From NCBI GenBank assembly GCA_043746305.1, contig JAYTRG010000023.1:1-29384 (forward strand): a stretch of DNA of 29,384 bases, in the 5' to 3' direction. The stretch comes from Candidatus Parcubacteria bacterium. Lineage in GTDB: Bacteria; Patescibacteriota; Minisyncoccia; Phycocordibacterales; UBA2100. The first letter of the stretch is position 1. Each line of letters begins with the position of its first letter. The notes beneath the pieces were generated by a model. The model made no database searches. It worked only from the letters and a program-made list of their open reading frames with translations, and had not been told where the DNA came from. Below, in pieces: positions 6,923-17,125 of the stretch. A program made the position numbers and the translations under genes.

Positions 6923-7930
6923 ATGTCCGAAGAACAAAAAATAAAGGAGAAGAGCCCCAAATCGCTCGACCAAGCGCTTCGTCCTGCCCTTTGGGATGAG
7001 TATGTAGGGCAGCAAGGAATTAAGCACAATCTGCGGATACTCCTTACAGCTGCAAAAGGGCGTAATCACCAACCAGAACACGTACTTTTATATGGCCCGC
7101 CAGGCCTCGGCAAAACCACGCTTGCACATCTCATGAGCCGAGAAATCGGCGCCAACTTGCGCACCACATCAGGCCCTGCAATAGAGCGTGTGGGCGATCT
7201 TGCGTCAATTCTCACCAATCTTGCGCCGGGCGACATTCTCTTTATAGACGAAATCCACCGTCTCAATCGCACCATCGAGGAAATTCTCTACCCTGCCATG
7301 GAAGCCGGCGTGCTTGACATTGTAATAGGCAAAGGTCCGGCTGCCCGCACCGTACAGCTCGAACTCCCTGCCTTTACGCTTATTGCCGCCACCACGCGTA
7401 TCTCAATGCTCTCCGCGCCGCTGAGAAGCCGTTTTTCGGGTGGTGTATTTCGCCTCCAATACTACACAATAGAAGAAATCGCAAAAATTCTTGGGCGCTC
7501 CGCAAAAATTCTTGATATCCACGTAGACAAAGAAAGCCTCATGGAGATTGCCCAGCGATCGCGCGCTACGCCGCGCACCGCCAATTACCTCTTAAAGCGA
7601 TGTCGCGACTACGCCGAGGTTTCGGGAGAACCACTCAATGTAAAGACGGTTAGAAAAGCACTGGCCTTACTTGAGGTAGATGAAATAGGGCTCAACCAAA
7701 TTGACCGCGATATCATTGCCACCATCGTAGAAAAATACCAGGGCGGACCCGTTGGGCTCAAAACCATTGCCGCAGCTCTTTCCGAAGAAGAAGGCACAAT
7801 AGAAGAAGTGCACGAGCCCTATCTCCTTCAAATAGGTCTCATCGAACGCACTCCTCGCGGCCGCACGGTGACCAATAAAGGATACGAACACATCGGCGCA
7901 GAACGGCCAGGGCAGCAAAAACTCATATAA
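6923..7930 (+). CDS. ruvB: Holliday junction branch migration helicase RuvB
   Basis: LRPALWDEYVGQ, YGPPGLGKTTLA, FIDEIHRL, LYPAME and EPYLLQIGLIERTPRGR. Confidence 0.98.
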   Translation: MSEEQKIKEKSPKSLDQALRPALWDEYVGQQGIKHNLRILLTAAKGRNHQPEHVLLYGPPGLGKTTLAHLMSREIGANLRTTSGPAIERVGDLASILTNLAPGDILFIDEIHRLNRTIEEILYPAMEAGVLDIVIGKGPAARTVQLELPAFTLIAATTRISMLSAPLRSRFSGGVFRLQYYTIEEIAKILGRSAKILDIHVDKESLMEIAQRSRATPRTANYLLKRCRDYAEVSGEPLNVKTVRKALALLEVDEIGLNQIDRDIIATIVEKYQGGPVGLKTIAAALSEEEGTIEEVHEPYLLQIGLIERTPRGRTVTNKGYEHIGAERPGQQKLI

Positions 7931-8008
7931 ACACGCAACCTCTCGCGAGGGCGAGATTGCGTGTTCGGCTTCAAAGGTAAGCGTGAGATCGGATAAATTT
8001 GTGCACAA

Positions 8009-8473
8009 CTATTTATGCATCTCAGGGCATCCAGCAGGGCCCATTTTGCACATATAGGCTCCGCAACGCATACATTCCCCGCTCCAGAGCGAAAAGCGGC
8101 CGCTTCCAAGGGACATGATTCCAAACGACATAAGCATGAGGAAAATCTCAAACTCATGCGGCTTGTATAGCCCGTGACCAAAACCAGTGAGGAATATTGC
8201 AACAATCATCTCAACACCGAAAAGTAAGCCAAAGAGGCGCGGTAAAATTCCCAAAATAAGCGCCAACCCGCCAAGCACCTCAAGGTACCCGATAAAGATC
8301 CCGGTCGCGCTGGGAAGTCCGAATCCAACAAACATTTGCTCCACGGGACCAAGGTTCGTTACCTTTCCCCATCCGTGCATCAAAAACACCAACCCAACAC
8401 CAAGGCGAATAAGAAAAAGCCCGAGCGAACGGTGGCCCAAATTAAAACTCCACGAATTAATTAGCTTCTGCAT
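8009..8473 (-). CDS. DoxX family membrane protein
   Basis: LIRLGVGLVFLMHGWGKV, EVLGGLALILG and LGSGRFSL; four hydrophobic segments. Confidence 0.88.
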   Translation of the reverse strand: MQKLINSWSFNLGHRSLGLFLIRLGVGLVFLMHGWGKVTNLGPVEQMFVGFGLPSATGIFIGYLEVLGGLALILGILPRLFGLLFGVEMIVAIFLTGFGHGLYKPHEFEIFLMLMSFGIMSLGSGRFSLWSGECMRCGAYMCKMGPAGCPEMHK

Positions 8474-8590
8474 ACATATCTATATTATTACTATCTCGCC
8501 AGTATAACGACAATACTGAAAAACTTATACACAGGAGCACGTACTAAATTGGGTGCAAAGACGCACATACAATAGGTGGGACGCACGGCG

Positions 8591-8624
8591 ACACAAAAAC
8601 CTCCCCAAAGGGAGGTTTTTGTGT
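8591..8624. terminator. Bidirectional intrinsic terminator-like hairpin
   Basis: Perfect 15-bp stem ACACAAAAACCTCCC / GGGAGGTTTTTGTGT with a 4-nt loop; the A and T tracts give a U-run on either strand. Confidence 0.8.
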
Positions 8625-8865
8625 TTCGGCGATTTCAGGTCTCCGGTGAGCGCGCCCGCGCAGATCAATACGATCTCCCCGCTTGGACGGGAAAAGAGGC
8701 GCTAGCATCCTCATTTCTCATCCGCTCATCCCGCCGCTCCTGGCCGACAACTCCCGCGGCGTCCTTCTACCTAAGGTAGAAACAGGCCCTCGGAGGTGGA
8801 AGTAACTCGGGGCTTTCGCCCCTCGCCTTCGCTTCCGTCTGACGCACGGACAATGCATCAGTACT
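8591..8865 (-). ncRNA. Candidate structured ncRNA B (about 270 nt), family not recognised
   Basis: No credible ORF. Bounded by a promoter-like element (8869-8895) and the terminator. Hairpins at 8839-8861 (8 bp, with a G-U pair only on the minus strand), 8809-8822 (GGGGC-GAAA-GCCCC, GNRA loop on minus), 8765-8781 and 8662-8676. Confidence 0.5.
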
Positions 8866-8994: not shown

Positions 8995-9002
8995 CAAAAA
9001 TT

Positions 9003-9040
9003 AAAAAAGGACCCACGACTCCTGCTCCACGGAGTCGGTC
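9003..9040 (-). terminator. Intrinsic terminator closing candidate RNA A
   Basis: Minus strand GACC-GACTCC-(8-nt loop)-GGAGTC-GTG-GGTC-C-TTTTTT. Confidence 0.65.
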
Positions 9041-9357
9041 TGGAAGATGCTGTCTATAAGCTTTTCCGCTACAGCCCCAAACGCCAAACGATTTCGCATA
9101 AATGTGAAGACCGGCGGTGAGTTTCCTAAGCGTCCTCTAATGCTTAGGGGGAAACTCACCGGCCAGTTTTGCCACTATGAGGGAGCGTTTCCCTCAGTTG
9201 GCGGTGGATTCGGCGGCCCGGGCGACGCCCGTCGGGGGCGCCTGATGCGCTGTGGTGGCCGCAAGCGGCCCGTCGTAGACTGACATCTCAGTATCCTTCG
9301 TAGACCATGTCCGTCCGACAACCAGAAAGATCATGTCCATATTTAGACTAGCACACC
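9003..9357 (-). ncRNA. Candidate structured ncRNA A (about 350 nt), family not recognised
   Basis: GC-rich with no credible ORF. Perfect 12-bp stem 9115-9126 / 9150-9161, plus stems at 9171-9202, 9226-9240 and 9257-9270 (G-CUUG-C tetraloop on minus). TATAAT on minus at 9365-9370 and a U-tailed terminator at the end. Confidence 0.55.
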
Positions 9358-9419
9358 CTTCCCTATTATAAAAAGCATGTCTGGAATAAGCGGGCAATGG
9401 GTTTATAATTCCCCTACCT

Positions 9420-9950
9420 ATGTCCGGACACAACAAATGGGCGCAGATCAAACGACAAAAGGGAGCGGCGGACGCCGCCAAGAGCAAGCTCTGGGGCAAG
9501 TTGGGCAAGCGCATCGCTGTCGAGAGTAAACTTGCAAAAGGCGACGTGAGCGCGGCAAGCCTAAGAAGCGCCATTGACCTCGCCAAGAAAGCCAACATGC
9601 CTAAAGACACAATCGACCGCGCGATTCAAAAAGGAACAGCGGCGGACAGCGCAGAACTCGAGTCGATCACCTACGAGGCATACGGCCCTGGCGGCGCGGC
9701 AATCATCATTGAAACGGTTACCGACAATCGCAATCGTACTGCGCAAGAAATAAAGCACCTGCTCTCTGTTAACGGCCTCGCTCTCGCCTCACCCGGCTCG
9801 GCGCTCTGGGCATTCGAGAAAACAGCCGAAGGATACGATTCTAAAAACGAAATCCCTCTCTCCGAAGAAGACAGCGCAAAGCTAATGGGGATAATGGAGG
9901 CGATAGATTCACACGACGATGTTGAAAACGTCTCCACCAACGCTGCTTAA
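9420..9950 (+). CDS. yebC: YebC/PmpR family protein, short form
   Basis: MSGHNKWAQIK, YEAYGPGG, TDNRNRT and DDVENV; only 176 aa. Confidence 0.95.
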   Translation: MSGHNKWAQIKRQKGAADAAKSKLWGKLGKRIAVESKLAKGDVSAASLRSAIDLAKKANMPKDTIDRAIQKGTAADSAELESITYEAYGPGGAAIIIETVTDNRNRTAQEIKHLLSVNGLALASPGSALWAFEKTAEGYDSKNEIPLSEEDSAKLMGIMEAIDSHDDVENVSTNAA

Positions 9951-13014: not shown

Positions 13015-14115
13015 TCAACGATTAAGCGGCATCACAAGGTACATAAACGTGGAGTCTGAAATACCCCTGATCACGAGAGGTTTTCCAGGCCCCGCAAACG
13101 AAAGGGTTACAGAATCCGACTGTATGGTCGACAAGCAATCCGCCAAATAGCCGATATGAAAATTAATATCAAGATCTTCCCCGGAAAGCGCCGCGTCCAA
13201 TGAATCAGACATTTCGCCTACTTCCCCTGAGCGCGCAGTCACTGAAAAAATCTTCTTCTTTGGGTATATATGCAGTCCAACACTTTGATCTACACCCGCA
13301 AATACCTTGGCCTTGCGCATAATTTCAGTCAAATCACTTTTTAAAATCACAGCTTCAGTACTGGCTTTTTTTGGAATAATTTCCTTGTAATTAGGAAATG
13401 TTCCATCGGTCACCCGTGAAATAAACATGGTTGTTGGACTTAAAACCGCGCACTGTGTTTCATCTAATTCCAGGGTAACCTCCTCTGCCGGCTCTTTATC
13501 AAGAACAAACATCATCTCTTGCGCGTGTTTTAGTGGAATAAGTACTTCCACTGAGTCTTTCTTTGCAGCGTTGACTATTTTTTTTTCTGCCAAACGAAAC
13601 GAGTCTGTCGCCACGGCGGTCAGCGCCCCATCCTCAATCAAGAGGTATACACTACCGAGCTCTGGTCGAATCATGGAGGGGGACGTTGCATACACAACCG
13701 AAGCAAGGGCATGTAGGAGCTGTTTGCGTGAAATCAAAAAACCCCCGTCTCCAGAAGTGCGCGGTAACGCAGGAAACTCTTCGTGAGAAACGGTTTTAAG
13801 TGTATTTTTTGAACCGCTCGATTCAATCAACAAAATTCCCTCACTACACTCAAGCGACACTGTTTCTCCTCTACTCGTTCGCAGGACTTCACGCAACGTA
13901 CTTGCTGAAACAGCCACAATACCCGGCTCCTCAATATGAGCAGGGACAGTCACTTCTATACCAGCCTCTAGGTTTGTTGACCGTATGACGAGTGATTTTT
14001 TCGTTGCTTCAAGTAAAAGGCAGGCGAGTACGGGGAGCGACTCTTTTTTTCCAACAAGACGCTCGGTTAAAAAAATAGCCCGCAACAAATGCTCCTTAGT
14101 TGTACCCAGCTTCAT
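13015..14115 (-). CDS. dnaN: DNA polymerase III beta sliding clamp
   Basis: STNLE, VATDSFRLA, FPNYKEIIP and YLVMPL; 366 aa; downstream of dnaA. Confidence 0.97.
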   Translation of the reverse strand: MKLGTTKEHLLRAIFLTERLVGKKESLPVLACLLLEATKKSLVIRSTNLEAGIEVTVPAHIEEPGIVAVSASTLREVLRTSRGETVSLECSEGILLIESSGSKNTLKTVSHEEFPALPRTSGDGGFLISRKQLLHALASVVYATSPSMIRPELGSVYLLIEDGALTAVATDSFRLAEKKIVNAAKKDSVEVLIPLKHAQEMMFVLDKEPAEEVTLELDETQCAVLSPTTMFISRVTDGTFPNYKEIIPKKASTEAVILKSDLTEIMRKAKVFAGVDQSVGLHIYPKKKIFSVTARSGEVGEMSDSLDAALSGEDLDINFHIGYLADCLSTIQSDSVTLSFAGPGKPLVIRGISDSTFMYLVMPLNR

Positions 14116-14328
14116 AGAATGTTTCTATTTAATATATTATTACTATTAGTGTTGTGGATTCTGTGGATAATAACGTTTAGAGGCGTAAGATATGGACGGC
14201 ACCATGTCTTTGTAATGTGAATTACTTTTGTTTTATCTTGAACATCCTGTTTATAGTAGAGTTTATTAGCAATAACTGTTGATAAGCGAGTTGTTGTTCG
14301 CGTTTCCATCACAGTATATCCACAGGTA
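14116..14328. other. Replication origin oriC (dnaA-dnaN intergenic region)
   Basis: Perfect TGTGGATAA at 14162-14170 next to degenerate TGTGGATTC at 14153-14161. Further near-boxes TGTTGATAA (14277-14285) and ATATCCACA (14316-14324). The adjacent AT-rich tract reads TAA TAG TAA TAA TAT on minus (14134-14148), resembling DnaA-trios. Confidence 0.8.
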
Positions 14329-15675
14329 TTATGCATGTATTAGTGCCCGAATGTGTTCAATCTCTTGTTCGAGTGTGTTGTTTGTTTTAATTTCTTCTTT
14401 TATTTTTTCACACGAGTGAATAACGGTGGTATGGTCTCTGCCTCCGAGTTTTTCGCCAATAGAAGGATACGACACGTTGAATTCCTCACGGAGGATATAC
14501 ATGATTATCTGACGCGGCCGCACCACCTCTTTTTTTCTGGTTTTTTCGTATATAGTTTTTTCAGATATCTCATAATACTGTGCTATTCGGCGCACCACCT
14601 CGTCGACAGAAACCCCGCGACCAGGTTTTACATTATGTTTAATGAGCGCCTTGACGTCCTGAAGTGTTAATATCCTACCTTTCAGCTGAGATCGGCAGAT
14701 AATCATATTGAGAATTCCCTCGAGTTCTCGTATGTTACCGCGCACGTTTTCCGCGATGTACGTAGTAATTTCTGTGGGAAGTGAAAAACCATGCTGCTCT
14801 GTCTTGGCTTTTATGATAGCTGTGCGCGACTCGATGTCTGGCTCGGGGATTTCGGCAATCATACCTGCCTGAAAACGCCCCTTGAGACGATCTTCGAAGC
14901 CAGGGAGAAGCATCGGATGTTTGTCGGAAGAAAACACTATTTGCTTGTTGCTATCGTGAAGTGCATTGAATAAATGAAAGAGTTCCTCTTGGGTTTTTTC
15001 TGTATTCGCAATAAATTGGATGTCGTCCATAATCAATACATCGTATTGGCGGTACTGGTCTTTGAAGTTGTTTGCGCGACCCGATTTAACCGCGTTTATG
15101 TAGTCAACCGCGAAGCGCTCAGAAGTAACGTATAAAACTTTTATTCCGGGACGAGTTTTTTTGAAATAATTCCCTATTGCCTGTATAAGGTGTGTTTTTC
15201 CTCGTCCTGTGCTGCCGTAAATAAAGAGCGGGTTATAAATAAGACCAGGACGGTCAACGAGCGCGCGAGCTGCTGCGTGCGCCAACTGGTTAAATGGCCC
15301 GACTACAAATGTTTCAAAACTGTAGCGTGGGTTTAGATTATCTCGTTTGTCTATATATAAACCAGAGAGATCGATAGGAGTAGTTTCCGGAACGGTTTCT
15401 CGTCGGGCCGGCTTCCTGTCGCTGGTGGGGTTTCGGTGAATGGAATATTCTACCGACCTAATAGATGAGTCGAGTGTTCGCAGTGCCTTAAGGATGAGCT
15501 TGTGATGCTTCTCCATCAGCCACTCTTTTACGATTTTTGATGGTACAGCCACTTGCACTGCTCCGCCGTCTCGGCTCAGTACGTCGGTATTACGAAACCA
15601 AGTGCGAAACGATGCCTGCGACGTACCAAGCTCTATTTGTACGAGCGCATTTTGCCATAATTCTCTGTTGGTCAT
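14329..15675 (-). CDS. dnaA: Chromosomal replication initiator DnaA
   Basis: YNPLFIYGSTGRGKTHL, DVLIMDDIQF, NIRELEG and IGEKLGGRDHTTVIHS. Confidence 0.99.
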   Translation of the reverse strand: MTNRELWQNALVQIELGTSQASFRTWFRNTDVLSRDGGAVQVAVPSKIVKEWLMEKHHKLILKALRTLDSSIRSVEYSIHRNPTSDRKPARRETVPETTPIDLSGLYIDKRDNLNPRYSFETFVVGPFNQLAHAAARALVDRPGLIYNPLFIYGSTGRGKTHLIQAIGNYFKKTRPGIKVLYVTSERFAVDYINAVKSGRANNFKDQYRQYDVLIMDDIQFIANTEKTQEELFHLFNALHDSNKQIVFSSDKHPMLLPGFEDRLKGRFQAGMIAEIPEPDIESRTAIIKAKTEQHGFSLPTEITTYIAENVRGNIRELEGILNMIICRSQLKGRILTLQDVKALIKHNVKPGRGVSVDEVVRRIAQYYEISEKTIYEKTRKKEVVRPRQIIMYILREEFNVSYPSIGEKLGGRDHTTVIHSCEKIKEEIKTNNTLEQEIEHIRALIHA

Positions 15676-15830
15676 ACAGGGTTGGTATATGTTCTCGCAT
15701 TATACGCGGCTGTATCTGTTGTGAAAGCGTCCAAAATATAACCTGTTTTTCTAATGGTGTGGATAGCCTGGGGATATCTTTTTCAATTCGTTTTTAATTG
15801 TTACCAGACTCATGACTTAGCGCATAAAGG

Positions 15831-16396: not shown

Positions 16397-17125
16397 ATGT
16401 TTGGCGCTATTGTCGGATTTTTTCATACGGTAATTTACGTACCGCTCTATAATGCACTCATCTTTTTCATCGGGCATTTGCCTGGGCATGACGTGGGGTT
16501 TGCGGTAATTATCCTTACCATTATTGTCCGCATCATCCTCTACCCAGTCTCGAGACGCGCCGTGGAATCTCAGCTTGCCATGAAGAAGGTAGGGCCTGAG
16601 GTAGAGGAGCTTAAAAAGAAGTATAAAGACGATAAAACTAAGCAACATGAGGCTATTATGAAGCTCTATAAAGAGCGAAACGTCTCAATTTCGGCGGGGT
16701 TTTGGCTCTTATTGGTGCAAATTCCTATACTATTCTCGCTCTACTATATGTTTGCAAGAAGTGGATTGCCTCAGGTTGACTCTGCGATACTATATCCTTT
16801 TGTGCACGCTCCCGACGGTGTCAACATGCTGTTTTTGGGGTTTGTGAACATGGCGGCTCATCAAAACATTATTCTTGCTGCGCTTGTCGCCCTTTCTCAG
16901 TACCTCTACACCCGCCTTTCTATGGGTAAACGCCAGGACGACTCCCCTGTCGAGGCATCTCTATCAAAAGACATGGCTCGCAGTTTCGATTTGCAGGCTC
17001 GCTATATGATGCCGCTTATGTTTGGCGTGATAGCGTATATTCTTCCCGCAGCGGCACCCTTGTATTACCTTACGGCCAATGCCTTTATGATAGGTCAGGA
17101 ATTAGTGAGCGGCCGGCGCTTTTGA
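16397..17125 (+). CDS. yidC: Membrane protein insertase YidC (short form)
   Basis: GFAVIILTIIVRIILYP, MKLYKE and LLVQIPILFSLY; conserved gene position. Confidence 0.93.
   Translation: MFGAIVGFFHTVIYVPLYNALIFFIGHLPGHDVGFAVIILTIIVRIILYPVSRRAVESQLAMKKVGPEVEELKKKYKDDKTKQHEAIMKLYKERNVSISAGFWLLLVQIPILFSLYYMFARSGLPQVDSAILYPFVHAPDGVNMLFLGFVNMAAHQNIILAALVALSQYLYTRLSMGKRQDDSPVEASLSKDMARSFDLQARYMMPLMFGVIAYILPAAAPLYYLTANAFMIGQELVSGRRF

Follow-up and report, generated by a model that had tools for sequence, protein, structure and literature searches.

The stretch of DNA analysed here (the window, 29,384 nt) is one whole contig from a Candidatus Parcubacteria bacterium whose genome comes to 568 kb and is 77% complete. 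The genes for DoxX (8473-8009, minus strand) and RuvB (6923-7930, plus strand) lie on one side of the element that concerns us, a short YebC gene (9420-9950, plus strand) and RuvC lie on the other, and dnaN and dnaA are found at 13.0-15.7 kb. A preliminary description, made from the letters alone, had proposed that the minus strand of this interval carries a novel non-coding RNA (ncRNA) gene of about 270 nt with its own promoter and terminator. Comparison with its relatives leaves us highly confident that the structured ncRNA gene is both genuine and new. All elements of the minus-strand unit as first described, from TTGACA and TATACT to a perfect 15-bp terminator, are present, as follows.

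8865-8591, minus strand: ncRNA body of about 270 nt, with its 5' end inferred from the -10 box and its 3' end from the terminator
8895-8869, minus strand: predicted promoter, with the -35 hexamer TTGACA at 8895-8890, a 15-nt spacer and the -10 hexamer TATACT at 8874-8869
8624-8591, minus strand: predicted intrinsic terminator, with a perfect stem of 15 bp, a UUUG loop and flanking A and U tracts

The promoter was absent from the output of a promoter scan that accepted spacers of 16-18 nt only, because its spacer is 15 nt. The same -35/-10 pair with a 15-nt spacer occurs in at least six relatives, and the remaining loci carry different promoter-like hexamers. The terminator is kept in 28/28 related loci and, with A and U tracts on both sides, can work in both directions. 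No conserved open reading frame was found in the RNA among the relatives compared: the frame that starts at a shared AUG runs for 12-79 codons and is unrelated past residue 7, in keeping with the earlier judgement that the segment holds no plausible protein. The locus thus shows promoter-like hexamers across loci, a terminator in every copy and a covarying fold, as a stand-alone ncRNA gene would.

A conserved, knotted RNA fold

A structure model assembled from RNAalifold, per-sequence folds and inspection was tested on an alignment of 28 full-length copies of the RNA. Eleven helices are supported, including a pseudoknot and a long-range helix. Base pairs are formed in 89.2% of 1560 cells, against 36-47% in controls in which the partners were slid by 1-3 columns, and none of 500 shuffles attains any of the five observed structure measures. 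Covariation had been proposed as a check on the candidate; compensatory double changes are found in 38 of the 56 pairs, and show that selection acts on the RNA fold itself. The elements of the fold, in the order in which the RNA would be read, are these.

8861-8853 with 8847-8839, minus strand: P1, a 9-bp 5' hairpin (helix 1), 98.8% of cells paired, with U-G and G-U wobbles
8836-8832 (GGAAG) with 8802-8798 (CUUCC), minus strand: P2 (helices 2-4), with compensatory changes in every pair
8820-8809, minus strand: GNRA-capped tip of P2, GGGGC-GAAA-GCCCC with a GAAA loop, within 8836-8798
8796-8791 with 8755-8750, minus strand: P3 (helix 5), 98.2% paired, enclosing the variable hairpin P3a at 8782-8765
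8761-8756 (CGCCGC) with 8737-8732 (GCGGCG), minus strand: pseudoknot helix (helix 7), 91% paired, with compensatory changes in 4/6 pairs
8747-8741 (UCGGCCA) with 8632-8626 (UCGCCGA), minus strand: P4, the long-range helix (helix 8), 96% paired, closing the 3' domain
8730-8642, minus strand: 3' domain, the long irregular hairpin P5-P6 (helices 9 and 10), with a lineage-specific insertion
8679-8663, minus strand: apical loop of the 3' domain, GGGAGAUCGUAUUGAUC, conserved

The terminator stem forms helix 11, with compensatory changes in all seven of its pairs. Individual columns show how the pairing has been preserved through sequence change. Pair 14:36 of P1 switches between CG and UA among relatives. 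P3, with the consensus UUCCY opposite RGGAA, has at pair 101:143 a CG in 11 sequences, UA in 11 and GC in 3, and P4, with the consensus UCGGNNA opposite UNNCCGA, has at pair 157:311 a CG in 12 sequences, GC in 7 and UA in 6. The pseudoknot helix crosses both P3 and P4, its 5' strand adjoining the 3' strand of P3 and its 3' strand following the 5' strand of P4. Two loops stand out: the tip of P2 is GAAA, GCAA, GGAA or GUAA in relatives, and the 15-nt apical loop of the 3' domain, consensus GGAGAUCGUAUCAAG, is near-invariant. The copy in the window is a divergent member of the family, with an extra branch in its 3' arm. A possible helix between the 5' AUCGAUG and a CAUCGAU segment on the 3' side was dropped, as it showed no covariation.

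Several of the hairpins of which the preliminary description had counted at least four are present, as is its GNRA tetraloop inside a GGAAG/CTTCC stem (8836-8798), where compensatory changes occur in relatives. The pseudoknot and the long-range helix go beyond it, as do the DnaA boxes that bracket the gene, its accessory range within one genus, and the lack of conservation of a second candidate RNA, all described below.

The strand of the RNA was assessed in several ways. The minus strand folds with an energy of -130.2 kcal/mol (z = -4.6 against dinucleotide shuffles), and the plus strand of the locus is nearly as stable (z = -4.3), so that folding energy alone cannot settle the question. In the alignment, the antisense strand pairs in 78.8% of cells, against the 89.2% given above for the sense strand, and 210 cells hold G-U pairs. 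A G-U pair in keeping with the minus strand only had been remarked on before, and wobble pairs are conserved in the 5' hairpin, as U-G in 26/28 sequences and as G-U in 25/28. The minus strand is favoured by the promoter, the conserved wobble pairs and the better sense pairing.

Distribution within one genus and the ruvB-yebC site

A DNA search gave one full-length relative, with 69% identity, in Candidatus Paceibacterota, which suits the Patescibacteria-like host that had been suspected; nhmmer added two more. A DNA similarity search across the genus again found one relative only. A scan of genome and metagenome contig collections with an 18-mer taken from the RNA, which was GC-rich, returned hundreds of unrelated high-GC genomes, from which nhmmer kept only the record of genome G006. 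The RNA family evolves too fast for DNA similarity searches, and a pattern and a covariance model were therefore needed. A pattern made from two conserved blocks matched 28/116 genomes of the genus, its reversed control being nearly without matches. The covariance model R1, which represents the 5' half of the RNA, matches the window at 8731-8862 with 74 bits (E = 2e-21). Under strict filters, by which presence may be understated, R1 finds the RNA in at least 70 of 116 species genomes of the genus and in 45 of the 82 of high quality, with scores of 54-132 bits save for one partial match at 47.5 bits. In about 70 congeneric genomes the unit is found again together with its promoter and terminator.

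Beyond the genus the RNA is scarcely seen. R1 gave one marginal match in 35 genomes from ten other genera of the same family, and no match in 149 genomes from other families of the order. Viral contigs gave at least 120 chance matches to the pattern; 80 of these contigs were screened with R1 and held no true match, the sole weak R1 match among the 80 loci lying in apparent coding sequence. The range of the RNA is limited to a single Paceibacterota genus, where it is accessory.

Within the genus the setting is largely constant. The next gene downstream of the RNA is convergent in G006 and is a convergent ruvB in 14 loci; in 8 of those 14 the ruvB reading frame ends 78-86 nt past the RNA terminator, so that the terminator is probably shared by the RNA and ruvB. 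Upstream, yebC diverges from the RNA in 18 loci. The closed genome G078 agrees in this neighbourhood, and its dnaN-dnaA pair lies at a distance of about 8 kb. A downstream gene that is usually convergent agrees with the self-contained gene first proposed; a co-directional one is found only in the window, where DoxX follows 118 nt past the perfect terminator.

The gap between ruvB and yebC varies in content and may be a hot spot for insertions. It holds DoxX and the RNA module in the window (7930-8590), a gene for a Gly/Ser-rich protein of about 600 aa and the RNA module in G078, and an unidentified open reading frame in G029, and it is empty in G079 and G084, where the two genes are 29-60 nt apart. 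Among five near-complete genomes negative for R1, ruvB directly abuts yebC in two and unrelated genes occupy the site in three. The YebC of the window has only 176 aa, ending after the first third of the C-terminal Pfam domain, and relatives match it over residues 1-175. A second candidate of the preliminary description, "RNA A" (about 8995-9420, minus strand), is non-coding over its 425 nt and has a long hairpin at about 9150-9100 and a terminator-like site at 9033-9012; no homolog of it was found in about 60 related loci or in closed G078, and it appears private to this genome.

Copies of the RNA stand in tandem, 370-480 nt apart, in G064, G081, G122, G127, G128 and G137. In the G064 pair (locus L308, 1129-1640) each copy comes with its own DnaA boxes, promoter-like stretch and terminator. 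The second copy in G064, the one second copy fully read, is a "mini" paralog that lacks the whole P5-P6 arm, so that P4 encloses 17 nt only.

Just past the terminator lies a further conserved feature.

8589-8564, minus strand: post-terminator motif, in which CCGUGCGUC (P1, 3' strand) occurs a second time

The repeat comprises the P1 loop and 3' strand (TACCGTGCG) and directly follows the terminator in about 24 of the 28 loci. The sequence (C/T)ATTGTA or TATAGTA stands 8-14 nt after it, and the downstream DnaA box follows at a constant distance of about 60 nt. The motif was rejected as a promoter, no consistent -35 spacing being present on either strand, and no covarying partner for the repeat was found in the 28 loci.

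These observations bear on two other accounts of the locus. The first holds that the RNA belongs to a small selfish or mobile cassette at the 3' end of ruvB, as an RNA antitoxin, a defence RNA or a replicon relic, and that the TACCGTGCG repeats mark sites of insertion or recombination. The module is indeed present or absent at a single junction, ruvB abutting yebC in G079 and G084; other genes are found at the same site elsewhere (DoxX in the window, the large gene in G078); a direct repeat flanks the RNA body; and several genomes hold tandem duplicates. The loci examined, however, have no recombinase or toxin gene alongside, nearly all copies sit at one syntenic site rather than being scattered, and the screened viral contigs hold no true match. 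Moreover, one of the copies of the repeat makes up the 3' strand of P1, which covaries, and is thus RNA structure and not merely a target duplication. We consider a cassette unlikely.

The second account is that of a cis-acting antisense or collision element, which would tune ruvB and yebC-ruvC through convergent transcription and a shared terminator, the repeat adding pairing with the ruvB 3' untranslated region. The conserved position between ruvB and yebC on the opposite strand and the bidirectional terminator suit it, and a ruvB transcript would contain the complement of the repeat, which would pair with the 3' strand of P1. A knotted fold of 250 nt with conserved loops nevertheless far exceeds what such a role needs, and the module is complete where ruvB is not its neighbour (in the window, with DoxX, and in G006). 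A cis role of this kind seems to us very unlikely.

Predicted DnaA boxes and a proposed mode of action

The gene is bracketed by sequences that resemble DnaA-binding sites, which in the window are the following.

8994-8917, minus strand: upstream DnaA-box-like array, with a perfect TTATCCACA at 8994-8986 and degenerate GATATCCCA at 8938-8930 and AAGTCCCCA at 8925-8917
8525-8533, plus strand: downstream DnaA box, TTATACACA, inverted in the window and in sense orientation in relatives

Boxes with at most one mismatch to TTATNCACA were counted in the flanks of the 28 loci, with an expectation taken from the rest of the loci. Between -150 and -40 the RNA-sense strand carries 52 boxes against 0.87 expected, an excess of about 60-fold, and the antisense strand carries none. 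The boxes fall at -114, -102, -90 and -78, a phase of 12 nt. By the sequence criterion for a DnaA regulon, a cluster of TTATNCACA at the promoter, the locus has an array that is enriched, strand-specific and phased. This predicted array stands upstream of the -35 hexamer, at a distance of about 20-80 nt, and precedes the promoter in nearly all loci. Within 110 nt past the terminator there are a further 27 sense-strand boxes, again against 0.87 expected. The array remains beside the RNA promoter in G078, though a large gene separates it from yebC there, and it recurs before the second copy in the tandem locus; both observations suggest that the predicted array belongs to the RNA. In many loci (for example L272 and L293) a palindrome of CCCC, 5-6 nt and GGGG overlaps the promoter-proximal box-like site.

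The interval between dnaN and dnaA (14115-14329) contains a perfect TTATCCACA at 14162-14170 and further boxes at 14277 and 14316, and one box lies upstream of dnaA at 15758 (interval 15676-15800). Since the same consensus box lies between dnaA and dnaN, the host DnaA presumably reads the canonical site. The dnaA/dnaN region is the likely chromosomal origin, to judge from these boxes. GC and AT skews in the window track the coding strand and do not help in placing the origin, and the GC skew of closed G078 is likewise uninformative and does not point to the RNA locus.

Boxes of this kind raise the question of whether the locus is primarily a DNA element for the control of replication, such as a second origin or a titration site of the datA/DARS type, at which transcription serves the DNA function, as transcription close to the origin or that of a preprimer RNA does in some replicons. 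Such a reading draws on the presence, to either side of the unit, of boxes that share one orientation, on the distance of 5.5-8 kb that separates the locus from dnaA-dnaN (in the window as in closed G078), and on a weak, sub-threshold Rfam likeness to the plasmid RNAI, which falls on the terminator only. Against this, 38 pairs have compensatory changes, which show that the RNA fold itself is under selection, and the strong terminator that closes every copy speaks against a run-on primer. About 40% of congeners, those in which ruvB abuts yebC included, lack the module, which is therefore not an essential origin; nor does GC skew place an origin here, so that oriC was rejected as an identity for the locus. 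We regard a primarily DNA-level function as very improbable.

What we propose instead for this new ncRNA gene is control by DnaA and an action in trans. DnaA occupancy of the box array would set the amount of RNA made, and the non-optimal 15-nt spacer fits a factor-dependent promoter. If DnaA sets the amount of RNA, the RNA level would report the status of replication initiation or of replication stress. Once folded, the RNA would then work in trans. Its knotted core and conserved loop would most likely serve to bind a protein or small ligand, simple antisense pairing being the less favoured mode of action. We offer this DnaA-controlled, trans-acting mechanism tentatively, as a possibility that falls short of being probable; for the explanation as a whole, new gene and mechanism together, we put the chances at even. 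A more specific version is distinctly unlikely: that we are dealing with a new class of knotted RNA, either catalytic or able to sense a ligand or protein, which is gated by DnaA and feeds back on replication initiation or on a stress response.

Several points weigh against the explanation as a whole. Binding of the array by DnaA is predicted from sequence, as is the independent transcription of the gene. Within the single genome G078 the clustering of boxes is not distinct from shuffles, so that the evidence for DnaA boxes consists in their conserved position across loci. The RNA is not matched in about 40% of the genomes of the genus, near-complete ones among them, and any role must therefore be dispensable or lineage-specific; the strict filters behind these counts also belong here. 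The post-terminator repeat lies outside what the model explains, and the proposal names no specific partner, ligand or target.

The genomes of bacteria in the Candidate Phyla Radiation are tiny and hold little non-coding DNA, and to our knowledge almost nothing has been reported on the regulatory RNAs of these organisms. The complexity of this fold is of a degree usual for ribozymes, riboswitch aptamers or ribonucleoprotein scaffolds. Should control by DnaA hold, this would be a rare structured RNA tied to the replication cycle, in organisms that are not yet genetically tractable; should the feedback version hold as well, it would amount to an RNA arm of the DnaA regulon in ultra-small, host-dependent bacteria. 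Restriction to part of one genus narrows the general reach of the finding. The alignment and covariance model are ready for an Rfam entry and provide a target for metatranscriptomics and structural work.

Relation to known RNAs

The novelty claimed at the outset stands after searches at both gathering and permissive thresholds. With the 4227 models of Rfam 15, no part of the window matched at the gathering score, and at E<=10 it gave only sub-threshold hits driven by terminators; among 20 relatives, at E<=0.1, there was only an RNAI-like hit on a terminator and no family match. No description of this RNA was found in the literature.

Nor does the RNA stand in for any of the common classes, whose hallmarks the preliminary description had also failed to find. 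Ribonuclease P (RNase P) RNA is excluded by the genome's own RF00010 match on contig 57 (125 bits). Transfer-messenger RNA (tmRNA) is excluded by RF00023 matches at other loci in relatives that bear the RNA, such as G006 contig 31, and ARAGORN found no tmRNA in the window. For 6S RNA, RF00013 gave no match. RNA of the signal recognition particle (SRP) was matched by RF00169 in 0/116 genomes of the genus and by RF01854 in 0/5. Neither an Ffh M domain nor an SRP54-type GTPase (Ffh/FtsY) was found in five genomes or across 80 families of the order, and the loss of ffh and ffs in Parcubacteria has already been published (PMC4508563). The genus thus lacks SRP RNA because the whole SRP pathway has been lost, and the present RNA, from a lineage without Ffh and FtsY, is not an SRP RNA. 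YidC is encoded in the window at 16397-17125. A riboswitch or other leader was rejected since the next gene is usually a convergent ruvB.

A very divergent housekeeping RNA (6S, SRP, tmRNA or RNase P), or a known riboswitch or ribozyme that lies beyond the Rfam models, might be invoked on the grounds that these models detect neither 6S nor SRP RNA in the genome and that standard models often fail with the divergent sequences of this radiation; with RNase P RNA on another contig, tmRNA elsewhere in relatives, an order without SRP54-type GTPases and a published loss of ffh and ffs (PMC4508563), a covarying fold that is branched and knotted and not the 6S rod with its central bubble, and an accessory RNA that lacks the co-directional gene a riboswitch would precede, this is highly improbable.

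The RNA more closely recalls the orphan classes of large structured bacterial ncRNA. Its general character is that of these classes: it is stand-alone and intergenic and some hundreds of nucleotides long, with many covarying helices, a pseudoknot, GNRA loops and a narrow taxonomic range, and it was found by comparative analysis ahead of any function. raiA, OLE, ROOL, GOLLD and HEARO are such classes in Rfam. It differs from them in having no sequence or structure likeness in Rfam 15, in being shorter than most, in its confinement to one genus and in the DnaA boxes around it. With 6S RNA, itself not detected in this genome, it shares the character of an abundant-type, stand-alone RNA with its own promoter and terminator, whereas the long imperfect duplex of 6S RNA with its central bubble contrasts with a multi-branched fold that contains a pseudoknot.

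For the predicted control region the nearest parallels are the dnaA and sda promoters of Bacillus subtilis, which are DnaA-regulated promoters with clusters of boxes. As there, several boxes of the same orientation lie directly upstream of a sigma-70-type promoter; the B. subtilis promoters precede protein genes, whereas the promoter here precedes a structured RNA and its boxes are known from sequence.

For the gene as a whole a counterpart exists in Caulobacter crescentus, where CcnA, a 182-nt cell-cycle ncRNA, lies in the essential origin under the control of CtrA and works through base pairing to the ctrA and gcrA mRNAs (PMC8959179). The RNA described here has no similarity to CcnA in sequence or fold, is associated with DnaA and not CtrA boxes, and is dispensable in many congeners, and its fold argues against a simple pairing RNA. 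Like CcnA, it is encoded among sites for a master regulator of replication or the cell cycle, which suggests that its expression may be tied to replication, and CcnA is the closest functional precedent for an ncRNA placed among replication-regulator sites.
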